Below are positions 6,617-64,000 of a stretch of 64,000 nt of DNA, piece after piece. The stretch's first letter is position 1. Every line of letters begins with the position of its first letter. Origin of the DNA: Chiloscyllium plagiosum (taxonomy: Eukaryota); the NCBI RefSeq assembly GCF_004010195.1, contig NC_057759.1, forward strand, positions 6,923,853 to 6,987,852, written 5' to 3'. The notes beneath the pieces were generated by a model. That model searched no databases. It had not been told where the DNA came from and worked only from the letters and a program-made list of their open reading frames with translations. A program made the translations under genes and the position numbers.

Positions 6617-6974
6617 CTTTTCCTCTCCTCTTCCCCCTTTGCTACCCTTCTCCCCTGTTTTCCATTTTGCCTCTGCTTCACCCATTCCCCCATCCCCAAC
6701 ATATTTTGTCACATAGCACTGGCTTCAGCCTTGATCATTCACAGCTCCTAATATCCCTATCATCTCTTCATGCACTGCCATGATCACCTCTTGGTTGCTA
6801 CCTTTGATTCTGGAGCCATGACTCACCTTCTCTTCGCCTAGTATAAATACCTCCCTATTCCCCCTTTTTCTTTAGCTTTGACAAAGGGTCAGTTAGACTC
6901 GAAACGTCAGCTCTTTTCTCTCCTTACAGATGCTGCCAGACCTGCTGAGATTTTCCAGCATTTTCTCTTTTGGC
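6617..6974 (+). mobile_element. Penelope-like element 3' fragment (pLTR tail) with an 11-bp target-site duplication
   Basis: CCCAGAACATG at 6606-6616 and 6975-6985 flanks a pyrimidine-rich segment that ends in a hammerhead motif and the 'cagatgctgccagacctgctgag' tail. Confidence 0.8.
6874..6912 (+). ncRNA. Minimal type-I hammerhead ribozyme motif, U3-A8 core variant
   Basis: AGCT-TTGACAA-A-GGGTC-AGTTA-GACTC-GAAAC-GTC/-AGCT: stem I AGCT/AGCT, stem II GGGTC/GACTC, palindromic stem III ACGT, predicted cleavage after C6908. Confidence 0.7.
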
Positions 6975-7413
6975 CCCAGAACATGTGCCTTTGAATTAGC
7001 AGACCGGGGATTATACAACTAGGCCACCATCTCTCCCTTGAAATATGTATAAAAATATATAGGCATGAAACCTAGAATTCCTAGGACCTATGTCACAACT
7101 GAAATGGCTTAAACTATTCTGATCGCATGGTGATTGCTGCTTTCAGAAAGGTTGAAGCCAATTTGTTTGTGAAACAGACTTTGATGTTTTAGACTTCTAT
7201 ATTGTTTTCTGTTCTTCGGACACCATTTTATTCTTTGTTGTATTTCACCCATTTTCTTCCCCTTGTCCCGGATACATCCTCTCATCTGCATGAAACTGCA
7301 TACCAACACCACTCTATTTGCGAAACAAAATCTCTCCTGCAATAACTAAAATTTTTTTGAGATCACAGTGTAACAGAGAACTGTAGAATGTCAGGCTCTG
7401 CGGAAAGATATGG

Positions 7414-7414
<1 letters not shown>

Positions 7415-7440
<26 letters not shown>
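7415..7440. repeat. (TA)n microsatellite
   Basis: Direct reading. Confidence 0.95.
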
Positions 7441-7445
<5 letters not shown>

Positions 7446-8789
7446 GAATAATGTCCAATGAAAAAGAGAATGAAACAAGAACATTTAAAAGGGACAGAAG
7501 TAGGTAATGCTGAAAAACTCAGCAGATTTGACAGCATCTGTGGAGAGACAACAGTGTTAACACTTCGGGTCGATTGACCGATCCTCATATCTTTTAGTAA
7601 GCACATGACAAGACTTTGTCATATGCACAATGGGGAGAAATTGTTTTCAGCCAGTAACAGAATTTAAAGACAAATCAAATCTTCCAATTTTGAATAATTT
7701 CCTTGTGTCATTGCAACACGAGGAACTGTTAGGTTGTTAAACCACAATTTTCCCAGGGCCTCATCACAGGCAAGAATTTAGTTGATGATGTCGTCCAGGG
7801 TTTTTATGGGTTTTATTTCCTATGGGTTAGCCTTGTTGCATATTTCAGTATTGTTACTGTTTCTGAATAAACATTGTAATGGCAGGCAGAGTACATGGTG
7901 TGCATGACAATGGTGGACAGATAACATCCACTCAACAATGACATTACAACGGTTCCTTACTGGCACTCTTTCAGTTTCTTGCTTTGACTTAAATGGCACA
8001 AATAAACTATACCAAGAATTCTGAACGTCCACAACTCTCACTGGATGCATTCACTTCGAGAAATTGTATATGCATAATGTATTGGAATTAATGCTAGATT
8101 GTGTCATAACTCACCAAGCAGGAGAACCAATGCGATTGTGTCCATGTTCTACCTTGAACTACTTTGAGATATGAGAATTTATGTAACACATATAGGGTGT
8201 CTATTTTTGGCTCGCTCAATTTAAAACCAGGAAGTATGTTTGCAAGGCTGTCAGAAGCACAAAACAAGCTGGCTGACATAACTAAATATGTAAAATACTT
8301 TGCCGATTTTGCCGATTTTGTCCAAGACGTCTACATTTGAATGGTAGAAGGTATGATGGAAAAAGTGCAGTTAAAAGAATATTTATTTATTAGGACTTTG
8401 AAAAAAGTGGAACACCTCTGGTGAGTATTTATGGGCGTATCATGAATTGTAACATTATTTCATGTTTCGAATCAAAAAGAAAACGACGTAAAATATGAGA
8501 AAAAACTTCTAAGCCATTAAGCTAGAACTGTTTTTCACTGACAGGCATTTTAGCTGCGAATAATTGGAAAATACTGGATGGAAAACTCAGTCCTCAATTA
8601 TACTTTAAAGTGACGTCCCATACACCACTTTGCCTCAATTCCAACCAACTATGTGAGACATATCATAATTTTCCTTTGACTTTGCGAATGTATCCAGTCA
8701 GAATATTCTCAGAACGGTGTTATGACCATTCAGTATCGACCTTTTCCCCCAAGCTTGTAAATATTTAGTAAACCATTTGCCACTCATTA

Positions 8790-13250: not shown

Positions 13251-13257
13251 ATCTTAT

Positions 13258-15599: not shown

Positions 15600-16450
15600 A
15601 TGACAGAGCGAGGGAAAACACGTTATTATAAACAGCTGGGCATTTGTGATTCTCGTGAATGGAATGTATCCTCATCCAAGTAGATGCCGCAGATGTGGAG
15701 GAACCCCGTTGAACGAGGTATAGTCCAGGCTGTTATGGGACTGCGTAGTAAACGTCCATTTGGAGACTGTCACAGAGATACAAATCTTGATGTCAAGAAA
15801 GGGGAAGTAGATGATTGAGCTGGATTGAGGGTGGGGGTGAAATTTGTGGCTGAAGTAAAAAAAAATGCAGATACTAGAATCCAAATAGACAGCAGGGCTT
15901 TGGAAGAACACAGCAAGCCAGTCAGCATCAGGAGGTGATGAAGTCGACGTTTCAATTGTAATCCTTTTTCAGAACTGAGATGGCTGTATGGGTTGCTGCA
16001 GTAAACGGGGTGGTGGAAGCAGGGTGGGAAAGAGGGGATAGATGAAGGCAGGTGGGGTACGATCTGCTTGCTCAATTGGAGGAATGACGCAGGTTGTTGA
16101 CAGGGTGGAGTGGAAGGATGGATGAGCTGGGAAGGGAGTAGGGGAATGGGAAGGGAAGATATTTTTAATTGGTGAACTCAATATTGAGTCCTCTTGGCTG
16201 TAGGCTGCCCAGGCGTTGTGGTTCATTGTAGCAATGGAGGAGGCCAAGGATATCATATCGGAAAGTGAGTGGGAAGAGGAATTAAAATTGGCGAGGCTGG
16301 GAGGTCTCGTCAAACCCTGCAGGCCTGGCTGCGAAGCTGGGCGAACCATTCCGTAAATTTACATTAGGTCTTCCTGATGTAGATAAGAACACATCATAAG
16401 CACATGATGTAGTCAACTTTTTTGGAAGAGAAGCAGGTGAACCTTAGTCT
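15600..16450 (-). mobile_element. Penelope-like element fragments (RT remnant, GIY-YIG remnant and pLTR with a degenerate hammerhead at 15942-15976)
   Basis: Reverse strand: 'cttatctacatcaggaagacc' (LYIGET-like) and AGTT-CTGAAAA-A-...-GAAAC-GTC-GACT. Confidence 0.7.
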
Positions 16451-16453: not shown

Positions 16454-18580
16454 ACCTACAATTTCCCTTCCAAACTACTCATAATAATAATTGTAAATAT
16501 CGTAAACCTCCTTCTGTATCTCTCGTTCAATAAAACACCCACTCAAAACCATAGTGATTCTACCTGTACAAGTAAAATGTACTTGTTGAAGGAGGCAACT
16601 CAGCACCATCTTTTCAAAGCATCTCGGGATGGCCAATGAATGCTGCTTTATCAAGCAACGTCTACATCCTATAAATTAAGTTTACGTGACAACTTTTCAC
16701 TTGGTAACAGTTGCCATTGCTATAGGGTTAGATGACATATAACATTTTTCTTAATAGATATATACGACAAATTAGATGTTTTATTGCTTTATCTGCACGG
16801 AAGAGAAATTGAAAGTTCATGGCAAAAGTAAACCATGTACGATTATTTCTGTGACAGAACGTTCTGACAATGGGCACCACAGAAAAAGGGAAATGCGATT
16901 TGCGGGAAAAAAGGCCATCGAACTAGAATGAACTCTAACTTAGAAGATGTTACATGGATACGTTCTTCATCAACCCCCTTGGCGTATTGTACGTCAATCA
17001 ATCTGTCATTTAGTTGTCTTTAAAATCACGATATTTGCTATTATGGTAGTACAGACTCTTAAAGCAGATTTAGATGCTGTTAATTCATTAAATACCTGCA
17101 CGATCCCTAAAAGGTCCCTTTAATTAATGACACCAATGCTCCCCAAAAATCTTCGTTTTTTTTTTCCTGTTGGGGTATTTGGAGGATGACGTCTGAAAAC
17201 ATACAAACTAAACTAAATTCACAGATTAGTATTCTCAGATAAGTTGGCCTAAAATTTCTGAACGAACATGGAGACGTAATTTTCCAGTTATAATATTTCT
17301 AAAAGACAGTATAATGACACGCATGGAAAAGTTGTGAAGAAAAGAAGCGTCCTTTTAAACCAATAAATATAGATGCTCCACCCCAAATAACGTGCGCAAA
17401 AGTTTCCACAACCAGTAGTTGCTATTTGGTTACAATTTTTCTTCTTAGTCAGAAGGTGCTGGGTTCAAATACCATATAGTATTATATTAAGGTCATCATC
17501 AGATTCGTTTCTGAGGAAGACGCACACTGCTTGAGTTTTTGCTCTTGTTTGAGTTGAAAGCAGAGGCATTGTGTGATTGTGTCCTTCTCTATTTTATCTC
17601 AAAGCAACGTCAACAAATAACGTCTGAACATGAAAAAAAAAAGAAATTATGTTACGTCATGAGAATGTGTAGGATCATAACACATATAACGTGGCAAGAT
17701 GAATTCTATGGAAATGGATGCATGTTCTTTTGAAAAATACGTAGTGCTTGTAGTCGGATGATTTTATTAGAAAAACGAATGAGTAGATTCAGCATAACCA
17801 ATGCTTAGTTCTTTCAGGAAAACAAACACAGGACAAAGATTTTAATTTAAAGTTGACTAGAACAGTGGGAAAATGCATTGCAACGATAAATTTCAAAAAC
17901 GGAGGACTCAGGAAAAACAAGTTCCTTTCACTAAAAGCCAGTACGGCAGTGGCTAAGTGTCAACTGGAACAGTACATTATATTGTCTTTTCCCCATGCGT
18001 TAGGACTTCATTCAATCGCGAGAATTGTGAAATGGGGATGGCTAATTCAATTATCCTGTACACATAATTAAATCAAGATTTGGAGATTCTGGTGTTGGAC
18101 TGGGATGTACAAATTTAAAAATCACACAAAACCAGGTTATAGTCTAACAGTTTTAATTGAAGGAGCGGCACTCCGAAAGCTCATGTTTCCAATTAAACCT
18201 GTTGGACTATAACCTGGTGGACTATAACCTGGTGTTGTGTCAAGTTGGACTGATTAAATCAACTTTGCTTGCATTTTTGATATCGTGGAAACATGCCCAA
18301 ATAGACTGGAGAATTTAAAGAAGGAAGAAAAAAAAAGCACCTGCAGTTGTTACCAAAGCACGAAATACCTTATCTTAAAAGAAATGTTCTCAGCTTTGAT
18401 GCCCATTGGTATGTTAAATTTTCAGTTCTATTCTTAGAATAAGCTCAGTGAAGAAGGATGTGGTTTTAGTGAGGTGCCTAAATACCAAAAGCAATTGTCT
18501 GAAAGTTTATTACTAAAATGGGTCTACATAAGAACACTTAGTGTCTCGGAACCCAACAAATCATTCTTGCATATCGCTTT
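16454..18580 (+). repeat. Segmental duplication A, copy 2 (paralogous to ~2047-4070)
   Basis: Collinear with copy 1; carries an extra 176-bp insertion at 18077-18252. Confidence 0.9.
18077..18252. mobile_element. Fold-back Penelope-derived mini-insertion with a 10-bp TSD
   Basis: ATTAAATCAA at 18067-18076 and 18253-18262; inverted arms 'acacaaaaccaggttatagtctaacagttttaattg' / 'caattaaacctgttggactataacctggtg..ttgtgt'; the loop holds a partial hammerhead GAA-GGAG-CGGCA-CTCC-GAAAG-CTC; absent from copy 1. Confidence 0.8.
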
Positions 18581-24989: not shown

Positions 24990-25340
24990 AGGCACCATGG
25001 TAGCTCAATGGTTAGCACTGTTAATTCACAGTGCCGGGGTGAAGGGCTTATGCCCGAAACGTCGATTGTCCTGTTCCCTGGATGCTGCCTGACCTGCTGC
25101 GCTTTTCCAGCAACACATTTCCAGCTCACAGGTTTGATTCCAGCCTCGGGTGTCTGCCTGGAATTTGCGCATTCTCCCTGTGTCTGTGTGGGTTTCCTCC
25201 CACAGGCGAAAGATGTGCAGGTTAGTTGAATTGGCCATGATAAACCGCCCATAGTGCTAGGTGCATTAGTCAGAGGGCAATGGGCTGGGTATTTACTCTT
25301 CAGAGGGTAGGTGGGACTATTTTGCGCTGTAGGGAATCAT
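24990..25340 (+). mobile_element. HE1-type SINE interrupted by a Penelope pLTR fragment (25040-25127)
   Basis: SINE head 'gctcaatggttagcactg' is separated from its B-box region by 'tgaagggcttatgcccgaaacgtcgatt...ccagctc'. Confidence 0.85.
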
Positions 25341-25349: not shown

Positions 25350-26310
25350 TGGAAAGTTGGTCACAGAAATAGAAGATGGAGTTTCATCCACATTAATATG
25401 TGGTGATGCATTTTTGGGAGGTGAAATTCATGAGGAAAATATATAGTAAATGAGCAGCATCCTCAGGATCAATGATATATGGAGTGAATTTTAGCTGTAA
25501 GTCCATAGTTCTCTGAATGCCGCTACACCAGTGATTATGATGATAAAGAAGACATGCCCTGAAGAAGGGCTCATGCCCGAAACGTCGATTCTCCTGCTCC
25601 TTGGATGCTGCCTGACCTGCTGCGCTTTTCCAGCAACACATTTTCAGCTCTAAAGAAGACTTATGGAAAGCTTGCCTTCATCATTTGGAGCATTTTGTAT
25701 AAAGATTGGCAAGTCATGCTGCAGCTGTGTAAGACATCAGTTGGGCCACATTTGTGGGATTGTGTGCCGTTCTGGTCGCCACGTTTTACGAACGATATGG
25801 AGGCTGTGGAGAGTGTACAAAAGAGGTTTACTGGGATGTTGCCTGAATTGGAGTGTATTAGCTATGAAGACAGGTTGGCAGAAATTGTATTGTTTGTTTT
25901 TTTTTCGCTAAAGCAACAGCGGCGGATGGGCGACCTGATCAAAATATGTAGAATTATGAGAGATGTGGGCAGGATTGATAATTGGAAATGCCCCAGGGAG
26001 TAAGTGTCACATACTGAAGCACGGATGGTTAGATTTAAAGTGAGATGGGGAGAGTATAAAAGAAATGTGTGAGGAATGGTTTACTTGGAGTGTGAAAGGT
26101 GCCTGGGACGCGTTGCCAGGGGAAATGGTAAAAGCATACATCATAGCAGCTTTTAATAGGCATTTAGATGGACACACGCACAGGCAGGAACAGGGTGACA
26201 TGGACCATGTGCAAGCAGACGGGATCAGTTTACATGGCATTAGGGTTGTGCATAGCTATGGTGGTCCGAAGGGCCTGTTCCTATGCTCTACTGTACTATG
26301 CCCTATGAAT
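25350..26310 (+). mobile_element. CR1-clade LINE 3' portion (host of the 25554-25650 insertion)
   Basis: 'LKKTYGKLAFI...VMLQLCKTSVGPHLWDC...VQKRFTGMLP' in ORF 25605-26003. Confidence 0.85.
25554..25650 (+). mobile_element. 97-bp Penelope pLTR fragment with a hammerhead core and a 10-bp TSD
   Basis: TAAAGAAGAC at 25544-25553 and 25651-25660; core CTGAAGA-A-GGGC-TCAT-GCCC-GAAAC-GTC/GATT at 25559-25590. Confidence 0.85.
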
Positions 26311-30759: not shown

Positions 30760-33430
30760 AAATAAAAACTGAAACAACCGTGGATGCTGTACATCGGACA
30801 TTATAACTGAAGTTGCTGGAAAAGCACAGCAGGCCTGGCAGCACCTCTGAAGAAAAATCAAAGTTAACATTTCGGGTCTAGTGACCCTTCCTTCGAACTG
30901 ATGGAAATTAGGAAAATGTCGATTTAAATGCAGAAGCTAGGGTGAGGGAAGGGGGTTGAGAAGTAAACGATATGTAGATGTACAGCCCAAAGAGAAGGAA
31001 AAAAACAATTGGACAGACAAAGGAGTCGATAACGATTTGACTGGGAGGGTGAATAGTTGTTAATGTAGACTGTTAGTGACTAACAATATGTCGTGTGTAA
31101 TGACAGACTATGTGATAACAAGCCTGGTGTGATAGGTTGGAGGTTAGGTCATGGGGGAGTTCAGGCGCTAAAACGCTTGAACTCCATGTTGAGTCCGAAG
31201 ATCTGCAGAGTCCCCAAGTGAGAAAATGTGGTGCTGTTGTTCCAGCTTGAACTGAGTTTCGCTGATACACTGCAGCAAGCCTGAGACAGAGATGATGGCC
31301 AGTGGACAGGATTGTTTGTTAAAGTGGTAGGCACCCGGAAGCTCAGTGTCTTTTTTTTTTAAAAGAGAACACAGATAATTTCTCATCTGGTGCAGTCCTT
31401 GCACACGTATGTTCTTTGATGTTTTTCATCAGATTGAGAATTTCCAGTTTACAGGCTCCATCTGCCTCGTATATACATGGTCGTACAATTCCTTCACACG
31501 TCCATCCTGGATGATCTCAGGGTTCTCTGCTTCCTGCTTGAGCAAAGGCCTGAACCGAGCCACTCACCACCACCCTCCTCTGCTTGGCCACCCTCAACAC
31601 ATTTTCTTTTAACTCCTGTCGTTTTCTTCAGTTCAGAAGGGTGTCCAGGGATACACGCATGGGCCCCAGTTATGTTTGTCTTATCATGGGATACGGGGAA
31701 CAGTATTTGTTCCAGTCCTATTTAGGCCCCTGCCCTCAACTCTCTCCTATATATCGATTATATTATTGGTGCTGTTTCCATCTCTCATTTGAAATTGGAA
31801 AAGTTAATCGATTTCGCTTCCAATATCCACCCCACCCTCACTTCTGTCTCTGACTCCTCCCATCCCTTCCTTGACATCTCTGTTTCCATTTCTGTGGATA
31901 GATTGGTCACAAATATTCAGATAAACCTACCGATTCCAACAGCTGTCTGAACTGTACATCCTCCAACGCCGTTTTCTGTAAATATTCTATTCCATTCTCC
32001 CACTTCCTGTGCTTCCATTACATATATTCAGTTCAGGCCAACTTTGAGAAGGGAGCCTCTGAAATGTCGGCCTGATTTCTCAATGGAGGAATCCTCAGTA
32101 ACATTGTTGACAGAGCCGTTAACCACGTTCGAACCATCTCCTGCATTTCTGCCCTCACACCCTTTCTTACCTTCCACAATAGGGGGTAGGGTTCCCCTTG
32201 TCCTTACCGACCATCCCACCACCATCCACGTCCATAAGATCATCAGTCACAATTTCCGTCACTTCTAGCTAGATGCCACCATCAGACACATATTCCTCTC
32301 CCCTCCACTGTCCACCTTCCGCTCAGACTATTCTCTCCAGGGCAGTCTAGTCCACTGTTCCTTCACTCCTAACACGCCTTACCTCCACAACTTCATAAAA
32401 CCTTCCCTTGCAACTTTCAAAATTATTACACATCCCGATTGAAATGGGGGCGCCACGCTGGCTCAGTGGTTAGCACCGCTGCCTCACAGCACCAGGGTCC
32501 CTCGTTCGATTCCAGCCTAGGGTCTCTGTCTGTGTGGAGTTTGCACATTCTCCCCGTGCCTGTGTGGGTTTCCTCTGGTGCCCTGGTTTCCTCCCACAAT
32601 CCAAAGATGTGCAGGGCAAGTGAATTGGTCATGGTAAATTGCCGTAGTGTTAGATGCGTTAGTCAGAGGGGAAACGGGTCTGGGTGGGTTGCTTTACAGA
32701 GTGCCTGTTTCCACACTGTAGGGATTGTAATCTTAACTTCTTTCCCCTCTGTACCCAAGTGGCCAAACATACCTTCAGATGGAGCTGTACTTTACCTGCA
32801 TTTCTCACATCTAGTCCACTGCATTCACTGCTCACAATGTGCTCTCCTCTACATTGCAGAAACGAGGCATAGACTGAGTGACTGTTTCGCAGAACATCTA
32901 CATTGTGTCTGTAAAAAAAAAGACCCCGAGCTTCCAGCTCCCAGTTGGACACAACACCCTGTCTCAGGTTGGCTGCAGTGTTCCAGTGAAGCTCAGCAGA
33001 AGCTGGAAGAGCAAAACTTTATTTTTAATTGGGGACACTGCAAATCTCTGGAAACAATATTGTATTTAGTTCAATAATTTTAGGGACAAAGCTCCCCTGT
33101 GTCCTAGCCCCTGTCCCAAGCTTGTTATCACATGATCTGTCATTACACACTACCTATTGTTAGCCACGAATAGTCTCAGTTAACAACTAGCCATCCTCCC
33201 AGTCAGTTCGTTTCCGACTCCTTTTTCAGTCCAACTGTTCTTCTTTCTCTTTGGTTTCTATCCCTCCATAACATTTACTCCTCTCCCCCACTGCCGTGCA
33301 ATCTTCCGCATCTAAACTGACATTCCCCGAGTTACCATTAGTTTTGAGGAAGGTTCACTGGACCTGAAACGTTAACTCTGATTTTCTTCACAGATGCTGC
33401 TGAGATATTTCAGCAACTTCTGTTTTTGTT
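30760..33430 (+). mobile_element. Penelope-like retroelement (RT C-terminus plus GIY-YIG endonuclease) with an inverted 5' copy of its own 3' end
   Basis: 'TRMGPSYVCLIMGY' (RT) in ORF 31584-31853; 'LVHCIHCSQCALLYIAETRHRLSDCFAEHL' (GIY-YIG) in ORF 32439-33077; 30760-31390 is a reverse-complement paralog of ~32890-33430; hammerhead motifs at 30862-30899 (-) and 33340-33377 (+). Confidence 0.9.
32445..32733 (+). mobile_element. HE1-type SINE nested in the Penelope-like element
   Basis: 'ggctcagtggttagcaccgctgcctcacagc' head and 'cctgtttccacactgtagggatt' tail. Confidence 0.9.
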
Positions 33431-37879: not shown

Positions 37880-38340
37880 ATTATGGAGTCAGGAGTGTGG
37901 TGCTGGAAAAGCACAGCAGGACAGGCAGCATCGAAGGAGCAGGGAATTTGACTCTTCTGTAAAAAGCGTATCATCAGGAATGAGGCTGGGGGGAAGGTAA
38001 CTAAGACCTCAATAGGTAATGGAGATGGTAGTGAAGATGATAATTTGGAGGGGAGGGTGGTGCAGATAGGTGGGAAGGCAGATGCACAGATGGGACAGGT
38101 CATGAGCACTGTGCTGAGTTGGAAGGTTGGAGCTGGGCAATGGTGGGGGAGGGGAAATGAAGAAACTAATGAAATTCAATTGATGCCATGTCATTGGAGG
38201 GTCCTGAGGTGGAAGATGAGGCATTCGTCCTCCAGGCGTCGGGAGGAAAGGGAGTGGCGACGGAGGAGGCACAGGACCTGCATGTCCTCTGCAGAGTGAG
38301 AAGGAGAGTTGAAAGTGTTTGGCGACAGGTTGGTTGTGGG
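37880..38340 (-). mobile_element. Penelope-like element 3' fragment with a degenerate hammerhead (~37944-37981)
   Basis: Reverse strand 'attcctgatga...gaagagtcaaattcc' followed by the 'gatgctgcctgtcctgctgtgcttttccagca' tail. Confidence 0.7.
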
Positions 38341-38659: not shown

Positions 38660-38830
38660 AGGAGAAAGTGAGGACTGCAGATGCTGGAGATCAGAGCTGA
38701 AAATGTGTTGCTGGAAAAGTGCAGCAGGTCAGGCAGCATCCAAAGAACAGGAGAATCTGAAAAGTCGATTCTCCTGTTCCTTGGATGGTGCCTGACCTGC
38801 TGCGCTTTTCCAGCAACACAGTTTCAGCTC
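38660..38830. mobile_element. Fold-back (palindromic) Penelope pLTR mini-element with TSD
   Basis: 64-bp inverted arms 38694-38757 / 38767-38830 with a 9-nt loop; AAAAGGTTCAGG at 38651-38662 and 38832-38843. Confidence 0.85.
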
Positions 38831-43800: not shown

Positions 43801-43859
43801 TTGTTATCCGCTTTTGGTTATAAACGATGAACGTGCCAGAGAAACTCAGTGTGAAACAG

Positions 43860-43897
43860 AGTTAACATTTCGAGTCCAGTGACCCTTCTTCAGAACT
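43860..43897 (-). ncRNA. Minimal type-I hammerhead ribozyme motif in a Penelope pLTR remnant
   Basis: Reverse strand AGTT-CTGAAGA-A-GGGTC-ACTG-GACTC-GAAAT-GTT/-AACT; stems I and II intact; stem III has ATGT for ACGT (likely CpG decay). Confidence 0.65.
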
Positions 43898-51799: not shown

Positions 51800-52045
51800 G
51801 TTTTGGAAGTCCTGTGCTTTACATATACCCCTCAAGTAGGTTTGTAAAAGAAGGAGAGACTTTAAAATTGGAATGTGGGGAAGATAATGCAAGAGCTGTT
51901 TATTGGTACAAAAATGAAGAGCAATTCACTCAAACACAGAGCAATGTTTATGAAATACTCGCGAACAGTGAAACTGGCGGATCTTATTCCTGCAAAAGAC
52001 ATTACGAATTGTTCAAGAGTGCACCTGTTGTAATTGTCATCATTT
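51800..52045 (+). CDS. FCRL-like receptor, Ig domain 1 (C2-type)
   Basis: Acceptor 'ctttcttcag', donor GTAAGT at 52046, 246 nt, phase 1-1; GFGSPVLYIYP..VKEGETLKLEC..VYWYKN..GGSYSC..SAPVVIVI with canonical Cys-Trp-Cys. Confidence 0.9.
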
Positions 52046-52741
52046 GTAAGTGAACTTTTTAAAAAATTCCTTCACAGGACGAGGGTGTCACTGGCTAGGC
52101 CAGTATTTATTGCTCATCCCAGAGAGCAGGTAAGAGTCAGCCACTTAGCTGTGTAGTCCAGTTTGACTCTGATTTCCACTGAAACACTGCGTGCAAGTGG
52201 AGTGCGTATTGATGTAATGATTTTTCTGAGTTCCCAGATCACTTTCAACCAAACACGCATGTTTCAGCATGAATAAGTTACGTAAGGTTAGGTATCTGAA
52301 ATGGGAGTTGGTAATTTCAGATGAGGAGAGGTTGAGTAGGTTGGGCCTGCATACATTCGAGCTTAGAAGAATGAGAAGCCACTTATTGAATGTACTTAGA
52401 GGGACCTGACAAGGTGAGATGAGGAGACAGGCTGTTTCCCCTTACCTTGGAGAGTCTGGAACCAGACGGGCTTCGTCTCAGAATGAGAGGGCTGCACATT
52501 AAAGACAGAGAGGAGGAGGAATTTATTCTCTCGAAAGGCAGTAAATCTATGGAATTCATTACTGCAGAGGGCTTTCGATGTTGGGCCATTCACACCCATC
52601 ACCCTCAGTGTCAAGCAATTCTCTACGTCTCCTGCCTTTCATTTTAAACACCCCCCCACCCCTTGTTATTTCTCTTCAACTACAGGGAACACCTGCTCCC
52701 CATCTCCCACTGTCCTTATACTTCATAATCTTATGCATATC

Positions 52742-53030
52742 AGGTGGCATGGTGGCTTAGTGGTTAGCACTGTTGCCTCATAGCGTCAGAAATTCGGCTT
52801 TGATTCAATTGACAAGCGACTGAAAGTGTGGAGTTTGTACATTCTCCCTATGCCTGCGTGGGTTTCTTCTGGGTGCTCAGGTTTACTTTCCCAAGCCAAA
52901 ACCGTGCAGTTTAGGTGCATCAGTCTCGGGTAAATGTGGAGTTATAGGGGAATAGATTTTTACAGTTACTCTTCGGAGGGTCAGTATGGAATTGTTGGGC
53001 CGAAGGTCCTGTTTCCACACATTAGGGATT
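52742..53030 (+). mobile_element. HE1-type SINE
   Basis: 'ggtggcatggtggcttagtggttagcactg' head; 'ttgttgggccgaaggtcctgtttccacac' tail. Confidence 0.85.
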
Positions 53031-53326
53031 CTACGATACCCTCTCAGCCTTCTCTGCTTCAAAGAAAACAACCTGATCTTATCCAGACTCTCTTCATTGC
53101 TGCAATTTTCCCCATCCCAGGCAACATCCTGGTGAATCTCCTCTGCACGCCCTCCAGTGCAATCACATGCTTCCTATAGTTCAGAGGCTGGGACTATGCA
53201 CAGTGCTCCAGGTGAGGCCTCACCAAAGTCCTGTGCAGCTCCTACATCACCTCCTTTTGTTAGAACTGTATTTTGTTGTGTTTAAATCTCATTTGGTGTC
53301 CACCTTTTGTCGCATTTCTTTTGCAG

Positions 53327-53593
53327 TTTCCAAAGAAACTCTAAGTCTGGAAGCTAAGTGGCCACATGTTCTGAGGTACGAGAAGATTGTAATGAACTGC
53401 CGTACGCCATACCAGACCTGGTGGGGACAAAAGCATTTCCAGTGGTTTCGGAATAATGAGTTGATAAAAGAAACGGAAGATGATTCATTCACCATAGAAA
53501 GTGCAGAATATTCAGATGAAGCACCTTATCGATGTGAATTAACAATTTACTATAGAAAGTGGGTTTCGAACAATCTAACCATCACAGTATCAG
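53327..53593 (+). CDS. FCRL-like receptor, Ig domain 2
   Basis: Acceptor 'catttcttttgcag', donor CAG|gttggt, 267 nt, phase 1-1; ..IVMNC..FQWFRNN..FTIESAEYSDEAPYRC..SNNLTITVS. Confidence 0.9.
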
Positions 53594-53669
53594 GTTGGTC
53601 ATTCCATTGTTTAGTTAATGCCAGTGAATGATTTGATGATTATATGCTGCATCTGTGTAAGCTGCTTTT

Positions 53670-55880
53670 GACAGAACCCTCCCAGTGATGGATACTCGAG
53701 GATAGGAGCAGGATGCTTAATCACTGACCTTCCCTCCATCATAAGATCAAAAGTGGGGATGTTCACTGATGATTGCACAATGTTCAGCATCATTCTCCAC
53801 TCTTCCGATATTGATGCAGTCCGTGTTCAAATGAACAAAGTCTATATAATATCCAGAGTTGGTATGACGAGTGGCAAGTAACATCTGTGCCACACAAATG
53901 CCTAAAACGGTCATGAATAATAGTAGTCTCTCTAACCGTCACCCACTAGACATTCAATGATGTTGCCATTGTCAACATTCTAGGGTTTCCCACAGACCAG
54001 AAAAAAATATCAACTGGAATGAGCATATAAACACAGCAGCTCCAAGAGCAGGTCAGAGGCTGGGAATTCAACAGTAAATAACTTACTTCCTGACTCCTTG
54101 AAGCCTGTCGACCATCAACAAAGCACCAGTCAGGACTGTGATAGAGTACTTCCCACTTGCCTGGATGGATGCAGCTCCAACATGACTCGAGAAGCTCGAT
54201 ACTATCCAGGGACAAGGCCGCCTCCGCTTGATTGGTACAACAACCAATACCTCCACCTTCATTTCTCAGTAGGAGTAGTGTGTAAAATCGATACGATGCA
54301 CTGCAGAAAGTCACCAAAGATCCTCAAACAGAATTTCCCAAACTCAGACCACTTTCATCTATAAGCTCAAGAACAACAGATATATGGGAATACCACCCTT
54401 CAACAAGTAACAATCTGAGGCACTCACCATCCTGACGTAGAAATAATTCAGCCATTCCTTCAATGTCACTGAGCCGAAATCGTGGAAATCCCTCCCAAAC
54501 AGCTTTGAGGAATAACCTTCAGCTAATGGCTCGTAGTGGCTCAAAAAGATAGCTCACCACCAGCTTCTCGAGGAGGCAACTTGGGAGAGACAATAAAATA
54601 TTAGACAGCCAGAAACACCAATGGCCCATGAGTGAATGGAAAATGTTTTGCTGTAATTGTCCATGGTGCAACCACACCCTGGATTTTTGTGTGTGCTATA
54701 TGGATCCCCATATCTGACGAAGTATTGTTTTGTCTCATTAGCTTGATTGAATTTGTAAACTGAGTAACTAAAAAGAGTGATGAAAACAGAGTGTTTGACA
54801 TTGTTGATTTGGACTTCAGTGAAGGTTTCATGTGGTAGAACAATTAGAAACACTCTGTCACTTAGGATTCAGGGAGAGCTTGCCAGTTGGATACAGGTTC
54901 GTCTTCATGGTAGGCAACAGTACGTGATGATGGGATGCACGTAACCAGCGGTGTTCAATAGGGATCGGTGATGCGTCCACTTTATGTAAATGACTTGGAT
55001 GAGAAAAAAATGATGCATTTTTTGCACATTTGCAGATGTCACACAAACTGGTGGTAACATCGATAATGAAGAAGGTTATAAAGATTATGAAGACATCTTG
55101 ATCAATTGGGTCAATGGGCTAAGGAATGGCAGATGGCGTTTAATTTGGATAAATGTGAGTTATTGCATTTTGGTAATGCAAACAATGACAGAACTTGTGC
55201 AGTTCGGGGTAATGCCCTTGGTAGTGCTGCAGGGCATAGGGACCTAAAGTTTCAGGTACATAATTCTCTGAAGTAGGCCGGGTGTTTAAGAAGCACGCTT
55301 TGCTTCATTGCTCAGACTCTTAAGTATACGAGTTGGATGTTATGTTGAGGTCTTAAAGAGCATTGGAATGCGGTATGCAGTTCTGGAAGGACATTATTCA
55401 ACTGGATATTGTTCAGAAAATATTTTTCATAATGTTACTATGAATGGAAGGTTTGAGATCTAAAAATAGACTGAAAAGTCGGTGACTTTTTTCCACTGAA
55501 GTGTAGCAGGTTGAGTGGTGACTTTATTAAAGTTCATAAACAATGAGAGGCATAGATAAGGTAACTGACGAGGGTCTTTTTCACTCGGGTGAAGAAGTCC
55601 AAAACTAAGGGGCATATTTTTAACATGAAAGGTGAAGGATTTAAGAAGGACACGGGGGCAACTGAGAATAGTTCATGTGTGGATTGAACTGTTAGAGCAA
55701 GTAATTGATACATGTACAGGTAGATTTTCTTTTCAGAGAGATTTGGGTAAGTTCATGAATAGGGAAGGTTTGGAGGGATATGGCTCAAATGCAAGCAGGT
55801 GAGACAAGTTTAGTTAGGAAACATGGTTGGCATGGACTGGTTGGACTGAACAGTTTGTTCAGTGTAGTGTGTCTCTAGGA
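53670..55880 (+). mobile_element. L2-like 3' region (53670-54640) followed by a CR1-clade LINE 3' half (54740-55880)
   Basis: 'gttcactgatgattgcacaatg' (FADD-like) and CR1 3' motifs; same arrangement as 18983-21820. Confidence 0.8.
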
Positions 55881-56664
55881 CTGGACAGGGTTAATGCAGA
55901 AAGGATGTACCTGATGACTGGGGTGGCGTTTGCAGGAAAACACAGGGGAGTCCAGAACCAGGGGTTGACAGTCTAAATGAGACTGGATTAGACTGAGATG
56001 AGGAGAAATGCCTTTTGCAGAGATTTGTATCCTTGCCTTCTATGTCAACACATCAATTCCTATTATTATCCAAATAATTTATCTGCATCAACTATACTTT
56101 ATGATCGCTATTGCCGACTGAATGCTTGAATCTGAGGTGTGAGTATATCATATAATATCAGTAAGACCTGATACGGATATATCTTGTTGATCGTGCACGA
56201 TTGTGCTGCTATAATATCCTTTGTCCTTGCCTTTTACACTTACAACTTATTAAATATTCGTATCACTCCTCGTATTGTATCTGCCCATTTGCTTCTCTTC
56301 ATCTCCACTCACATTTGATGTCAGCTGAGAGAGAAGTATGTTCTAACAGGTATTACGTAACACACTAAGACCATTAAAGTGGCTGAATGACCTCCTGCTG
56401 TTCTGTTTTCTTATGGTCTTAAAGTAACTCCTCAGTTAAGGAGAACTAAGCTACAGCCAATACTCAGGTAAGTTAGAAATAAATCAACATAATCAATTTA
56501 TTTATTCAGACCGGATTGAAGAACATATCGGAGGTGGGTTGACGGAACTATTACTTGAAAATACATTTTGTAAAGACTGTGATAGTGAATATTTTCAGAG
56601 TACGTTCTAGTGTAACGACAGCCTGTGGTAAGCTGTAATGATGCAACTTTGCTTTCAATCTTAA

Positions 56665-56922
56665 ATGGAAATGTGACTTTCCATGTTGTCCCTGTTACAC
56701 CTTTGGAAGGAGAGTCAGTGGAACTGAAATATCGGCACATATATAATTATTGGTATGAAAGGGAATTTATCTTTTATAAAAATGGCAAGAATATTCATTC
56801 AGTGAAGTCCACAACACCCGAATATTCGTATCACATTAAAGTAAACAGAACTGAAGACAGTGGATGGTACAATTGCATCATTGACTGGGAAAAATCACGA
56901 GAAGTTTTGATTCAGGTTCAAG
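56665..56922 (+). pseudogene. FCRL-like receptor, Ig domain 3 exon, apparently defective (acceptor AA instead of AG; first Cys replaced by Tyr)
   Basis: Open frame (D)GNVTFHVVPVTPLEGESVELKY..FIFYKNG..EDSGWYNC..SREVLIQVQ with donor AAG|gtacgt; the pyrimidine tract ends 'tcttAA' at 56663-56664; TAT at 56730-56732 where TGT is expected. Confidence 0.7.
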
Positions 56923-56979
56923 GTACGTATCCAATTTTGCACAATGTGCACAAGACAGCCAATTCTTCCTAGATCTTAA

Positions 56980-58575
56980 GTAGTCAATGGAATGGATGTA
57001 ACAAAGTTTGCAGAAGACATGGAGCTTGTTGGGAAGATGAGTGATGAGGATGACATAACTGGCATACAATGTGGGAGAAATGTGAGATTTTGTGATCTGG
57101 CAGGAAGACTACAGGAACTGAATATATTTAAATTATGAAAGAACGTAGAAAGCTACAGAACTGATGGATTGGAGAGTCTCATTTGTGAAACAGAAAAACT
57201 GAGTGTCCAAGTTTTTGGTGTGTCATAGGGAAGGCAAATGGTTTTTATTTTGAAGACAATGGAGTTTAAAACTCAGGAGGTTATACTAACCCTCCACAAA
57301 GCAATTGTCAGACTGCAGAAGAACGTTATGATCAGTTTTTGGGAAACTTATCTCAAGAAAGATGGACTGGGCATTGGAGGCAGTTCAGAGAAGAATCAGT
57401 CAGCTGGTCCCGGGCATGGAGGGACTATCCTCACTGAAGTTTAAAAAATGAGAAGCAAACTTATTGAAGATTCTTAGATGGACTTGACAAAGGAGATGAG
57501 GAGAAAGGTCGTTTCCCCTGTCTGGGAGATTCTGCAATCAGAGAGGTATTGACATAGAATAATGGGGTGTCACTAATTGAAGATGGAGGTGAGGAGAAAT
57601 TCCTTCTCTCTGAGGGAAGTCATTTTGTGGAATTCTTTACCACAAAAGGCTATTGTGGCAGGGTTGTTAAGTACTTTCCAGGTTGAGTGAGAGAATTTTA
57701 TTTTAAATCAGAGTAATTATGGTGAATAAACGGCAACAAATTGGAGTTGAGGGTGATCGAATCAGACGTAATTTTTTTGAATTGGAGTGCAGACTCAATG
57801 GGCTGAATAGCCTACTTCTGTCGCTACATCTTATGCTCGTACAATCTATTAAAAGCAATCTGAGCCTCTTAGAATTAATTTAAAGCTTTCTTAAATAAGG
57901 TGACCAATGTGATACACAGTATTGTTGTTGGTCTTCACATGGTGCCACACATGATTGAAGTGATAATCCTGGAGGTAATTGATAACATTCCATTAGGTCG
58001 CTATTTGTACTGGTACATTCTCTGAACAGAGAGGTGAACGCAGGTTCACAGAGAAAAGGAGAGAGAGAATGGGACAAGATCCGATAGAAACTTTGGGGGA
58101 TAAAAGTTGGTATTTGGGTTGTTCCCATCCCAGGATTCCTCAGAAATATAAGAGGCTTGTGTTTAGGGCGAGGCTGAATTGGGTCTTAGGAGACTTAGGG
58201 GTAAATTTATAGATGTTTATAGAGTCATGAGCGGCAGAGATAAGGTGGATCACCAAAGTCTTTTCCCGAGAGTAGGGTATTCCAAAACTAGAGGGCATAG
58301 GTTTAAAGTGAGGGGGAAAATTGGAAAGGGATCTGAAGGGCAACTTTCTCACCCAGAAAGTGGTGTGTGCAAGGAATAAACTGCCAGAGAAAGTGTTGGA
58401 GGTTGGGACAATTGCAGCATTAAAGACTTTTGATCAGCACATGGACCGGAAGGGTTTAGAGGCACATGGACAAAATGCAGGCAAATGGGATTAGGTAATT
58501 TTAGGAAACTTGGTAGGCATGGACGGGTTGGGCTGAAGGGTCAGTTACCATACTCTGTGCTTGCATGATTCCATA
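56980..58575 (+). mobile_element. CR1-clade LINE fragments in the D3-D4 intron
   Basis: ORF 57238-57444 'MEFKTQEVILTLHKAIVR'; ORF 58179-58379 'RRLRGKFIDVYRVM..SLFPRVGYSKTRGHRFKV'. Confidence 0.8.
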
Positions 58576-58753
58576 ATTCAGGTGGCATTGAGACAGAATT
58601 TCAAATTTGCGAAGTAAGAGAAAGATAAAATTTTACCCTCTCCTCTGTCTTTAGTCAGAAAATGCTCACATTCTTTGCCCCGGACACTATTGTGCCTTTT
58701 ACTCTGTGAAAATAACAGTTGAATGACGATCCCGATTGTGTGTTACATTCCAG

Positions 58754-59035
58754 AACGCTTTGCCAAGCCCGTGCTGATGGTGGAACCGGCAGCTGAAGTA
58801 TTCGAGGGGCTCCATCTCACACTGACTTGCACTGTCCAGGCGGCACGGCCCTCCATCCGGCTTCACTACCTATTTTACAGAGGCAGTGACGTCCTGGAGG
58901 CTCCGCCTGATCATGGTAACGTGTACACCATCAACGCAGCGGCTACAGACGTTTCCGGAAATTACAGCTGTGAAGCAATCGAGATGTTTTTCAGTCTAAG
59001 GAAGAGGAGCGAAGGCATTCACATTTCCGTTAAAC
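58754..59035 (+). CDS. FCRL-like receptor, Ig domain 4
   Basis: Acceptor 'ttacattccag', donor AAC|gtaact, 282 nt, phase 1-1; ERFAKPVLMVEP..VFEGLHLTLTC..LHYLFYR..SGNYSCEA..KRSEGIHISVK, a pattern typical of FCRL membrane-proximal domains. Confidence 0.9.
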
Positions 59036-59811
59036 GTAACTATTTGTCGCTATCGCAGATTCTGCAGTGCAAATTAAAGACTCTTCAACCCATTCAGTCA
59101 GAAACCGCCACCTCACTATTGTCCAATCCCATGTCCCCAGTACATGGCCCCGGAGCCTTGGCATTGCGAGTGCACACCTAAATACTCTCCAATGTTATGA
59201 GCGTTTCTGGCTCTCCCATACTTACAGGAAGTGAGCTGCAGATCCCCTGAGTGAAAATGTTTTTCATCTTATTCCCTCTAAACTTCCAGCCCCTTAGCCT
59301 CAACCATTGTCCAACCCCTCTGTTTATTGATCTCATCAAGGGGAAATATTTATTACTGTCAACCCTGTTTATGCCCCCTCATTATTTTATATATCTTAAT
59401 CATGACTCCCACAGTCGTCTCAATCTACTCTACTCAAAGGTAAACAAACCCAGTCTTATACAATCCCTTTCCATCATTGAAACTCTCCTGCCTCTAAGGC
59501 AACATCCTGAAAAATCTCCCTCTGTCCCTCTCCCAGTGTTATCCCATCTCTCTTACAATGTGAAGTCCAGAACCGGGTACAATTCTCTCTCTGCAGTTGT
59601 AAATATTTATTCTAAATGTGATCGCGATTGTCACCAAATCTGATCTTGAGCTAACGCAATGCTAACTGCCTTGATTGGATTTGAAAGATTGTTAGAAGTC
59701 TCCCATACTGACCCATTCTCTGGATTTACTTGATCTCTTTCTGCTCACTGAGTTTTCCCAAGTCCAGGCACTCTGCAGAAACAAACACAAACATGTTCTT
59801 CTGCTTTCCAG

Positions 59812-60084
59812 AGACGTTCACCATCCCTAAGTTGACCGTGCATCCTGAGGGACAAGTGTTTGATGGCCAATGGGTTAAACTGGTTTGCTCAGTTGAAGCA
59901 AATATGTTCCAAGCTTCCTTGCAGTACAGCTTTTACAGAAATGGGGTCCCTCTCCAGTCTCCATCCGACCACAGCGATTACATCTCTGAGTCACCTCGTC
60001 CAGCAGACTCGGGTACTTACCATTGTGAAGTCACGGACGGGAAGGTGTGGAAATGCAGTAATCAGCTCCATTTGTCCATCAGAC
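59812..60084 (+). CDS. FCRL-like receptor, Ig domain 5
   Basis: Acceptor 'ttcttctgctttccag', donor GAC|gtgagt, 273 nt, phase 1-1; QTFTIPKLTVHP..VFDGQWVKLVC..LQYSFYRNG..ADSGTYHCEV..SNQLHLSIR. Confidence 0.9.
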
Positions 60085-60574
60085 GTGAGTACCATTTATG
60101 ATTGTTCGTTTCTTAGCAGTTAAAGGTTCATAACAGAGACAAATTCTCATCATTCTCCACATCTCACAGCCATACATTGGTGAGCTAGAGACAAACAGCA
60201 CAAAGTAATGGATGGGCCATTTAGGACTGAAATGAGGAGCAATGTCTTCACCCAGAGACTGGGGAGCCTGTGGGAATAGCTGGCCCAGAAAATTATGGAA
60301 ACAAATAAATGGCAACAGGCCATTTGGTTCTTCCGGCGTTTAGTGCCCATTGACAAGAATTGTGGCTGATTATCCAACTCAGTCTCCTGTCCCCTTCCTC
60401 TCTTCCTTTAGGCCCTGAAAACTCTATCCAACTCGTTCTTGAACAACATTTAATATATCAGCTCCGACCAATTTCTGTGGCAGAGAATTCCACCGGCTCA
60501 ACACTAATAATACATTAGCCTTAAAGGTGTGCACAGAAATGGTATATGGAGTTTAATCCTCACTAGTGAAAAGT

Positions 60575-62540
60575 GTAAAAATAGGTAAGTCCCCTGGACC
60601 GGATGGGATTTATCACAGGATTCTCTTGGAAGCCAGGGAGGAGATTGCCAAACCTTTGGCTTTGATCTTTATACCGTGATTGCCTACACAAATAGTACAG
60701 AAGACTGGAGGATAGGAGATGTTGCTCCCTTTTTCAAGAAGGGAATTAGGGACCACCCTAATTATAGGTGCATGAGCCTTACTTCAGTGGTGGGTAAAGT
60801 GTTGGAAATGTTTGTAAGAGATAGGGTTTAAAATCATCTGGAGATGAACAAGTCAACACGATTTTATTAAAGGTAGGTCGTGCCTCACGAACCTTTTTGA
60901 GTTCTTTGAGAATGTGACCAAATAGGTGGATGAGGGTAAAGTGGTTGATGTTGTGTATTTGGATTTCAGTAGGCGTTTTATAAGGTTCCCCATCCGAGGC
61001 TATTGCATAACATGCAACCATGGAATTGAGAGTGATTTAGCAGTTTGGATCGGAAATTGGCTAGCTGCAAGAAGACAGAGGGTGGTGGTTGACGGGAAAT
61101 ATTCATCCTGGAGTTCGGTTACTGTCGCGCACCACAGTGATCTGTTTTGGGGCCACTGCTGTTTGTCATCTGTACACATGACCTGGATGAGGACACAGAA
61201 GGATGAGTTAATAAATTTGCGCATGATGCTAAGGTTTGTAGAGTTGTGGATATTGACGAAGGGTGTTGTCGTTTACAGAGAGACAAACATGAGCTGCAGA
61301 GCTGGGCTGAGAGGTGGCAAGTGGAGTTAATGCAGAAAAGTGTGAGGTGATTCGTTTTTGAAGCAGTAACATGCATTTAGAGTACTGGGCTTACAGTATG
61401 ATTCTTGTTAGTGCAGGTGAGCACAGAGACCTCGGTATTCGTGTCCATAGATCCATGGAAGTTGCCACACAGGTTGGTAGGGTCGTTAAGAAGACACATG
61501 GTGTGTTAGATTTTATTGGTAGAGGGATTGAGTTTCGGAACCAAGAGGTCATGCTGCAACTGTACAAATCTCTGGTGCGTCCATATTTGGAGTATTGCAT
61601 GCAGTTCTAATCATCACATTCTCGGAAGGATGTGGAAACTTTGAAAAGGTTTCAGAGACGAATTACTAGGTTCTTGGAGGGAAGGTGTTATGAGGAAAGA
61701 CGGAGTGACCTGAGGTTGTGTTTGTCAGAGAGAAGAAGGTTGAGAGGCAACTTAATTGCGACATATAAGATAATGAGAGGGTTAGATAGATTAGACAGTG
61801 AGAACCTTTTTCCCTGGATGGCGATGGCTCACACGAGGGGACATAGATTTAAATTGAGGTGTGCTAGATATGGGGCAAATGTTTGAGGTAGTTTCGTTAC
61901 TCAGAGACTAGTAAGTGGAATGCACTGCCTGCAACAATAGTAGACTAGCCAACTTTAAGGGTAATTAAATGGTCATTGGATAGGCATTTGGGCGAGAATG
62001 TAATAGTGTAGGTTAGATGGGCTTCAGACTGATTCCACAGGTTGGTGTAACATTGAGGGCCAAAGGGCCTGTACTGCGCCGTAACGTGCTATGAAATTTG
62101 TTCGAGTGTAAGGTGATGCATTTTTGAGAAGTGAAATGTAACAGGACAGTATACAGTAAATGGCAGGATCCTTGGCAGCATTGATATACAGAGGGATCTT
62201 GGGGTGCAAGTCCATTGATCCCTGAAACTGGCAGCACAAATAGATAAGGTGGTTAAGAAGGCAGATGGCAGGTTTGCCGTCATCAGTCGGACAATGAATA
62301 TAATTTTGGCAAGTCATACCGCAGCTGAATAAGACTTTAGTTCCAACACATTTGGAGGATTGTTCCCTACACTATCGGAAAGATGTGGAGATTTTCGAGA
62401 GGGTGCAAAACAGGTTTACCTGAATGTTGCCTCGACTGGAGTATGTGAACTATGAGGAGATGTTGGACAAAAATGGGAGGTTTTCACGAGAACATTGCAG
62501 AGGATGAGGGGACCCAACTGGCATATGTCAAATTATGAGA
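60575..62540 (+). mobile_element. CR1-clade LINE RT plus 3' end, followed by a second CR1 fragment
   Basis: ORFs 60926-61330 'DVVYLDFS', 61371-61610 'MLQLYKSLVRPYLEYC', 61632-61886 'RRRLRGNLIATYKIMRG'. Confidence 0.9.
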
Positions 62541-62544
62541 AGAA

Positions 62545-64000
62545 AGTTTGCTTGCTGAGCTGGAAGGTTTGTTTTCAGATGTTTCATCACCATTCTAACT
62601 ATCATCATCAGTGTGCCTCTAGTTAAGCACTGGTGTTATGTCCACTTTCTATTTATGTGTTTAGTTTTCTTTGGGTGGGTAAACTTAGAACATAGAACAT
62701 TACAGCACAGTACAGGCCCTTCGGCCATTGATGTTGCACCAATTTGTGGAACCAATCTGAAGCCCATCAAACCTACACTTTTCCATTTTCATACATGTGT
62801 TTAGCCTATGACCAATTAAATGTCCTTAAAGTTGCCGAGTCTACTACCGTTGTAGACAGGCCGTTCCATGTCTCTACTACTCTGAGTAAAGAAACTAACT
62901 CTGACATCTGTTCTATACCTATCGCCCCTCAATTTAAAGTTATGCCGCTCGTGCTGGCTATCACCATCCGAGGAAAAGGGATCTCACTGTCCAGCCTTTC
63001 ACTTTAATGAAAACAGTCTCACATCTCTCAACATTTCTACATAAAACCTCCTCTCCATACCAGGCAACACCCTAATAAATCTCCTCTGAACTCTTTTAAA
63101 AGCTTCCACGTTCTTCCCATATTGCGAAGATCAGAACTGTGCGCAATTCTCAAAGTGTGTCCACCCCAGAGTTTTGTACAGCTGCAGCATGACCTCATGG
63201 CTCTGAAACTCGGTCCCTCTACAAACGCACCATATGCCTTCTTAACAACGTTATCAACCAGTGTGACAACTTTCATGAATCAATGTACATGGGCACTGAG
63301 ACCTTCCTACCCATCTACACTTCCAAGAATCTTGCCATTAGCCCAGGACTCTTCACTCATGTTACTCCTTCCAATGTAAATCATCTTCCACTTTACCCCA
63401 TTAAACTCCATTTGCCACCTCTCAGCCAGCTCTGCAGTGTATCTGTGTCCCTCTGTAACCCAAAACTTCCTTCTTCATTGTCCACAAATCTACCGACCTT
63501 ACTAACCCATTCTTCTACGCTCTCATCCAGGTCATTTACAAAAATGACAAAACTCATTGACCTCAAAACAGATCCTTGCGGTACACCACAAGTAATTGAA
63601 CTCCAGGATGAACATTTCCCACCAACCATCACCCTCTGTCTTCTTTCAGCTAGACAATTTCTGATCCAAACCGTGTAATCACCCTCAATCCCATGCCTCC
63701 GTATTTTGTGCAATAGCCTACATAGGTGATGTAATTTATTCCTCTTTGCCTCAAAGGATGGTAGCTGAGGTCCCGATCGATGTGTTTATTGAAAGACATC
63801 CAGCTGAAATGCCAAGGTTTTAGGAATTCTCGTGCGTGTCTCGGTTTGGCATGTTCGTGGATGGATGTTTATCCCAGTCAAAGTGGCTTTCTTCTTCGTC
63901 AGTGTGTAAGGATAATTAGTGAGAGTGGGCCATGTCTTTTTGTGGCTAACTGATGTTCGTGTATCCTGGTGGCTAGTTTACTGCCTGTTTGTCTGAAATA
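62545..64000 (-). mobile_element. Penelope-like element (GIY-YIG C-terminus and pLTR with a degenerate hammerhead), split by a CR1 insertion
   Basis: Reverse strand from 64000 reads 'YFRQTGSKLATRIHEHQLATKRH...HFDW'; CTGATGA...GAAAC-ATC motif at 62575-62614. Confidence 0.8.
62685..63722 (-). mobile_element. CR1-clade LINE 3' half
   Basis: ORF 63393-63713 'WIRNCLAERRQRVMV..GVPQGSVL..FVNDLD'; the tail reads 'agaacatagaacat' on the + strand. Confidence 0.9.

Follow-up and report, generated by a model that had tools for sequence, protein, structure and literature searches.

Minimal hammerhead ribozymes (min-HHRs) of Penelope-like elements (PLEs) have been described by Cervera and De la Pena (2014, PMC4209133; statements on published work here and below refer to the accessible portions of the sources cited). 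These are type I motifs that lack loop 3 and carry a palindromic 15.2-16.2 step, an extra base before stem II, a G10.1-C11.1 pair, and a short stem I. Several families occur per genome, a U3-A8 core variant exists, and most copies are single and truncated, some forming opposite-strand pairs. Motifs of this published kind occur in a 64,000-nucleotide stretch of Chiloscyllium plagiosum (NC_057759.1, positions 6,923,853 to 6,987,852; hereafter the window), for which an initial annotation had proposed about eleven hammerheads. At the sequence level, the family types found here (A to E, and a sixth, F) have all the defining features of the PLE min-HHR, among them the 3-8 pair and the core boxes CUGANGA (or its U3-A8 form) and GAAA...UH. 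In contrast to the earlier survey, whose accessible text includes no shark, stem II is shorter in the main family. The eleven sites are almost certainly pieces of the pseudo-long terminal repeats (pLTRs) of PLEs carrying a minimal hammerhead. As a whole, the data are probably best explained by mostly broken pLTR pieces of five PLE families whose parents would cut as dimers and whose short stubs would be copies of capped, uncut 5′ ends. What is new is the host and the scale, together with one testable mechanistic lead; the copies themselves are mostly inert.

The Poseidon element PAc of Anolis (Frangieh et al. 2024, PMC11167929) has two internal start sites for reverse transcriptase (RT) and an optional tail; the elements described here likewise have an optional tail and two 3′ ends. 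Uncut RNA is the dominant PAc substrate, and no RNA reads end at the cut site. In contrast to PAc, families A to D have a CX4CX2C-type linker, which is Neptune-like by the description in PMC8557442, and stubs starting at a fixed base, which the accessible PAc text does not describe.

The pLTRs of bdelloid Penelope elements (Arkhipova et al. 2013, PMC3846280) share with the present families a TATA box and an initiator (Inr)-like motif, a 5′ pLTR in inverted orientation, palindromic junctions attributed to self-priming, target-site duplications (TSDs, 8-10 nt in bdelloids), and solo pLTRs. However, bdelloid copy numbers are low, and recombination or deletion is invoked to explain the solo pLTRs, whereas here many copies have a TSD of their own. 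For Drosophila Penelope, an internal TATA-less promoter has been described.

Hammerhead-Bearing Sites in the Window

All eleven sites are homologous to the hammerhead-bearing ends (pLTRs) of five PLE families. Profiles of families A to D match ten of them over the ribozyme region, and the remaining site, at 62575, is matched by the family E profile with 64 bits (nhmmer); shuffled sequence gives no match to either. The sites and the associated PLE sequences are as follows.

6617..6974, plus strand: family D insertion composed of a 3′ untranslated region (UTR) end, a pLTR with hammerhead, and a tail (90% identity to loci L106/L239 over 6618-6973)
6842..6849, plus strand: TATA-like box by sequence, 32 nt upstream of the first base of stem I; putative promoter role
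6874..6912, plus strand: intact minimal hammerhead with a U3-A8 core, the sole strict match in the window
7498..7591, minus strand: decayed family A end (nhmmer, 53.5 bits; no covariance model match at E<=1)
15901..15980, minus strand: decayed hammerhead end in which C3 faces A8 and stem II is broken (profile and covariance model matches)
18077..18219, unstranded: head-to-head family C stub (profile match; inverted copies)
25040..25127, plus strand: family B stub truncated within the first core box (profile and covariance model)
25558..25651, plus strand: family B stub with core and stem II intact and the 5′ strand of stem I gone (profile, covariance model, and fold)
30760..31292, minus strand: 5′ arm, in inverted orientation, of the family A insertion whose end lies at 33430, with a mutated hammerhead at 30862-30899 (inverted repeat I6)
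31602..33035, plus strand: broken PLE open reading frame (ORF) remnant, RT to GIY-YIG (tblastn with the L167 ORF, E=1e-19, and with relatives)
33340..33430, plus strand: family A 3′ pLTR with a damaged hammerhead (U3 against G8, stem II changes; profile and covariance model)
37895..38339, minus strand: decayed end of family B, including 3′ UTR and a remnant of the GIY-YIG C-terminus (73% to L167 4462-4832)
38694..38830, unstranded: head-to-head family B tails without ribozyme core, absent from the initial annotation (inverted repeat I20; profile)
43845..43897, minus strand: family A hammerhead whose core boxes are intact, with ATGT in place of the palindrome (profile, fold, and covariance model)
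62527..62680, minus strand: decayed family E end with an extra U, a decayed long stem II, and ACAT in place of the palindrome (nhmmer, 64 bits; 75% to L268)

A strict descriptor, requiring the 3-8 pair, a stem II of at least 4 bp, GAAA-NN′-UH, and a stem I of at least 2 bp, passes only the motif at 6878(+), with no match in 200 shuffled windows. Thus the count of about eleven holds for homologous ends, but only one is intact by the strict descriptor. This copy has a 4-bp stem I, an extra A, a 5-bp stem II, and a palindromic ACGU; cleavage is predicted after C6908. Its insertion is bounded by an 11-nt TSD (6606-6616 and 6975-6985).

The other sites are truncated, damaged, or decayed. Three are 5′-truncated (18159, 25040, and 25559): most of the first core box is gone at 18159 and 25040, and the 5′ strand of stem I at 25559. 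The head-to-head stub at 18077..18219 has no complete ribozyme because its forward arm begins inside the core box. Damage to core, palindrome, or stems is found in seven sites. At 30862 the core box is mutated and ATGT replaces ACGT; at 43860 ATGT likewise replaces the palindrome; at 33340 U3 faces G8 and stem II is damaged; and 7555, 15942, 37944, and 62575 are decayed. An Rfam 15 scan of the window yields no hammerhead family match and five weak unrelated matches at E<=10.

Coding Regions Linked to the Motifs

The original proposal that several PLE families carry minimal type I hammerheads whose helix III is palindromic is supported. The motifs are linked to RT and GIY-YIG coding sequence. 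An RT-containing frame from a flank gives 266 scored matches among 43,399 candidates. At L167, a 725-residue RT-GIY-YIG frame ends 365 nt before a family B motif; it matches RVT_1 (E 2.8e-6) and GIY-YIG (E 6.5e-4), both below the Pfam cut-offs, and has 2,279 homologues, the nearest named ones belonging to bamboo shark (91%), whale shark, and a ray, in keeping with a shark host. A search of PDB sequences with this ORF returns no match. For family D, L239 harbors an RT-thumb/GIY-YIG remnant 440 nt upstream of the motif, and ORF remnants also lie upstream of family A (L023) and family C (L283 and others) motifs. For families E and F, the link is a GIY-YIG-like C-terminus upstream, read by eye. 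A linker of the type CX2-5CxxC between RT and endonuclease is seen in L167 and in family C loci. The clade labels of the families are presumptive.

Within the window, Pfam finds no RT or GIY-YIG match on the broken ORFs; detection required tblastn with an intact relative. The ORF remnant at 31602-33035, split near 32460-32650 by a repeat resembling a short interspersed element (SINE; repeat families D10/D15), leads into the motif at 33340. Upstream of the minus-strand end at 15901..15980 lies a probable GIY-YIG C-terminal remnant, judging from its translation read by eye.

The motifs are short, non-coding, and dispersed, as would also be expected of non-LTR retrozymes or of chance matches. Animal non-LTR retrozymes (PMC7229834) share with them very high copy numbers of type I hammerheads (126,247 canonical motifs in axolotl) and a link to PLE pLTRs, and a 2026 preprint (bioRxiv 10.64898/2026.07.22.740005), which sampled one chondrichthyan for tandem retrozymes, finds them there. 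However, retrozymes consist of 150-450 nt units in tandem, each bearing a canonical type I hammerhead with canonical helix III, whereas the motifs here are minimal and reside in dispersed single stubs. There are no tandem hammerhead units in the window, whose tandem arrays contain tails that lack a ribozyme core; helix III is not closed, and the motifs continue directly into the PLE 3′ UTR and ORF. Chance is already refuted by the 0-0.1 matches found in shuffled sequence. Either origin is hardly credible.

Covariation and Core Conservation

The principal covariation set comprises 11 copies chosen to represent families A, B, D, E, and F; family C was left out. In this alignment, 94.9% of the cells are paired, compared with 68.9% after shuffling, and 8 of the 11 pairs are changed on both sides. 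The covariation score is 0.696 against 0.216 in shuffles, with slid controls at or below 0.18. Among 100 model matches, drawn from 100 of 120 sampled stretches and fitted to the model, 83.2% of the cells are paired versus 68.1%, with scores of 0.377 and 0.150. None of these statistics takes account of kinship among copies. The claim of cross-family covariation is thereby borne out, and the true covariation appears to lie between family types. The stem variants quoted in its favor are present, but some of those within the window reflect decay. The covariance model built from the 11 copies recovers nine of the eleven window sites at E<=1, together with one spurious antisense match; it misses 7555 and 18159, and family C is absent from it.

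Eleven core positions are invariant or nearly so across families while the stems turn over. Among 204 descriptor matches, the 15.1-16.1 pair is CG in 163, GC in 40, and TA in one; pairing at this position is demanded by the descriptor, whereas the CG/GC switch between families is not. In the same set, which includes motif-selected loci, an extra base lies between positions 9 and 10.1 in 202 matches, and the 10.1-11.1 pair is G-C in 179 and G-U in 21. This base is A, as had been noted, in families A to D, but U in E and F. The absence of G at position 17 follows from the descriptor's own rules and does not serve as evidence.

The 3-8 pair belongs to the active hammerhead fold. Among 100 family D matches listed of 959, U3-A8 is found in 98, C3-A8 and C3-G8 in one each, and U3-G8 in none, while a close sister type keeps C3-G8. 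The swap appears to be the norm of family D and the product of one event. Single changes at the 3-8 pair abolish cleavage in the anole element (PMC11167929). Schistosoma Cercyon has been reported to carry this swap as well (PMC4209133); family D provides an independent vertebrate case.

The fold might instead be kept as a protein-binding or promoter element that no longer cuts: the min-HHRs described earlier are poor cutters in vitro (PMC4209133), mutation of the anole HHR does not prevent insertion in vitro (PMC11167929), and stem I is weak in the most successful family. Such a role is difficult to reconcile with near-invariant core positions amid stem turnover and with the compensated 3-8 swap, and it is very unlikely. 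Folding of monomers is not informative (z-scores -2.5 to 0), stems I and II being present in the minimum-energy fold of 6 of 10 copies.

Individual families have their own stem signatures. Family C has stem I CAC/GUG, stem II GGAGC/GCUCC, and AGCU where the others have ACGU. Family F (L161:2655(+), L164:3158(-), L202, L178, L082, and L073) has a GCA/UGC stem I, an extra U, and an internal stem II mismatch, and often occurs in inverted pairs. In family B, a U-U mismatch interrupts stem I of the most abundant subfamilies, and a rarer subfamily has a full 4-bp stem (L031:9032-9067 compared with L128:1497-1532); subfamily abundance is unrelated to predicted ribozyme quality.

Copy Number in the Genome

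In the 3.56-Gb genome, exact patterns, most of which leave stem I unconstrained, match about 71,000 times, whereas reversed-pattern controls do not match. Family B accounts for 64,334 of these matches, C for 4,623, E for 962, D for 959, and A for 159 plus 16 longer-loop variants. Density was sampled in 120 evenly placed 10-kb stretches of contigs C1-C50 (1,162,574 non-N bases). These contain 30 strict motifs, compared with 0.1 in shuffles, or 1 per 39 kb, which extrapolates to about 89,000 intact motifs (95% range 60,000-127,000). Intact counts are low because the strict descriptor misses family F. Remnants of families A to D covering the ribozyme region number 212 in the sample (1 per 5.5 kb, about 600,000 genome-wide), and families E and F add 32 matches. 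The window, at 1 per 6.4 kb, is typical of the genome.

The initial estimate of one hammerhead per 6 kb thus holds for remnants but not for intact motifs, and the density consists mostly of dead copies of a few master elements. The pool is very large, as had been anticipated, but it is not very diverse, comprising only five to six families with B dominant. The intact motifs are about ten times the 9,000 and 4,000 min-HHRs reported for Xenopus and coelacanth (PMC4209133), a scale that the genome adds to the published picture.

Ends and Junctions of the Short Copies

PLE copies show 5′ truncation, an inverted 5′ arm, an optional tail, and a TSD; stubs of 90-140 nt often have TSDs of 9-15 nt (chance rate 19/591). 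When 5′ ends are anchored on the tail only, with motif-selected centers excluded, they accumulate at -5 to -3 in family B (54/160, p 2e-30), D (11/35), A (6/30), and C (13/39), the last having a second cluster at -9 to -7 (8/39). The A at -4 is also the leading 5′ loose end in other sequencing runs, where the 3′ ends concentrate at two positions, +81 and +126. Families A, C, and D have a TATA-like box 27-32 nt upstream of the pile-up A. Where the base preceding the start A is non-template, it is G in 60 of the 100 family B matches listed and in 60 of the 100 family C matches listed, compared with 26% expected (p 8e-13); the counts were made by hand on the first 100 matches listed per family. 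At other family B junctions, G is found in 35 of 135. Some of the junction G of families B and C derive from inverted arms. A pile-up on A, a TATA-like box about 30 nt upstream, and a junction G in two of three families together point to the copying of capped, uncut RNA, and on balance the short stubs appear to be copies of the capped 5′ end of element RNA. The accessible text of the min-HHR paper (PMC4209133) contains neither the pile-up nor the junction G.

The pile-up could also be a structural artefact, in which RT or the nascent cDNA releases or folds back after stem I is copied, such that it marks the edge of stem I rather than a start. In families A, B, and D it coincides exactly with the base that opens stem I, family C peaks additionally at -4/-3, the stem I palindrome is common to perfect head-to-head pairs, and family D lacks a G excess. 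However, the family C peak at -8 falls beyond stem I by five bases, 32 nt downstream of TATAAA, 412 genome matches have a non-template base at C -8 (G in 60 of the 100 listed), and family B has a G excess. This explanation is rather doubtful, if the most serious competitor to cap-end copying.

Alternatively, a share of the copies could have been templated by RNA that the ribozyme had already cut, their starts at the cut site being a fossil of cleavage in vivo. Starts at +28 are nominally significant in family B (7/217 against 1.4 expected per position, p 0.0006) and occur in 2 of 59 family C copies. As a cleavage footprint, this signal was rejected: six of the seven are explained by inverted junctions or short deletions with stem I/GAT microhomology, only 1 of 90 non-inverted B copies starts there, and none does in families A and D. 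An origin from cut RNA is accordingly unlikely. An intron ending at the stem I AG in families A and D is ruled out, since the stubs contain the AG; families B and C lack it.

Several observations weigh against capped, uncut copies of dimer-cutting parents. Family B has TTTATC rather than TATA upstream of the pile-up A, and only two uninterrupted stem I pairs, with copy L128 preferring another fold. What we take to be the Inr consensus fits families A, B1, and C but not D, B2, or L005. The family D junction shows no G excess (28 of the 100 matches listed, against 29% expected). At nine non-inverted, TSD-flanked B loci, G lies within the duplicated target in five, and two have an extra G; a G shared with the target fits annealing of a cap-templated C to a target G, and equally target preference. 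In family C, the -4/-3 peak at the stem I edge consists mostly of inverted copies, and the five copies at -8 in the TSD/inversion set are all inverted. Families E and F have no 5′ pile-up in ten copies, eight of which extend upstream. Among ten long candidates, no complete pLTR-ORF-pLTR element is found, all being gapped, truncated, or broken in a gapped assembly. Finally, the one raw RNA run that yielded reads, a single-cell poly(A) run assigned by species label (X19), has no site where many molecules begin or end; it is uninformative on start or cut sites because its loose ends mirror genomic truncation.

A tail motif common to families A, B, and D, represented in the window at 6913-6960, lies 15-20 nt past the cut site. 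In families A and D it consists of a pyrimidine tract, AG, and then ATG, resembling a splice acceptor, and the frame from this ATG ends after about 20 codons; B mostly has GG before ATG. The shared motif is a candidate RT-binding or start signal.

Other Features of the Window

Tandem 75-96 nt units of the family A tail occupy 41559-41710 and 44457-44780 (+). They begin near the palindrome and cut site, without the first core box or stem II, and may represent a tandem derivative devoid of the ribozyme; sequencing run X15 contains a similar junction. A degenerate 43-nt tandem array lies at 29053-29393 (+), and a 107-residue frame at 39762-40085 (+) resembles, by eye, a retrotransposon integrase fragment, with no Pfam match. 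Five exons with Ig_2/Ig_3 domains at 51685-60101 (+), with no hammerhead remnant between them, presumably belong to an Fc-receptor-like gene. The window also contains many 3′ ends of long interspersed elements (LINEs), which we take to be CR1/L2-like, and repeats that we likewise presume to be SINE-like (e.g., 24224-24850, 35640-36060, and 61516-62100).

Proposed Mechanism and Implications

In the proposed mechanism, transcription would start at the A just before the ribozyme, about 30 nt below the TATA-like box. RT would begin internally, 90-135 nt downstream, in the manner reported for the anole element, and would run off the uncut 5′ end, while template switching or fold-back, aided by stem I complementarity, would make the inverted arms. 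In parent elements, cutting by the minimal hammerhead is predicted to require a dimer. Catalysis would be selected only on master elements, and dispersed copies would decay passively. Neither PLE hammerheads of sharks nor start-site stubs or cap-G turned up in a literature search, with subscription papers, Repbase/Dfam entries, and preprint supplements outside its scope.

A bolder version is offered tentatively. The hammerhead may constitute the first 30-45 nt of a capped RNA polymerase II transcript, the hundreds of thousands of 90-140 nt stubs may be cDNA run-offs of the uncut cap end, and the ribozyme may act as a decapping switch. The young, near-identical families B and D are ready constructs for dimer cleavage assays, and the junction statistics make both the role of the PLE hammerhead and the identity of the copied RNA testable. 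If the proposal is true, the genome would serve as a fossil map showing the start site together with both RT entry sites: uncut RNA would yield dead stubs, while cutting of tandem RNA would remove the cap leader and alter copying or translation.

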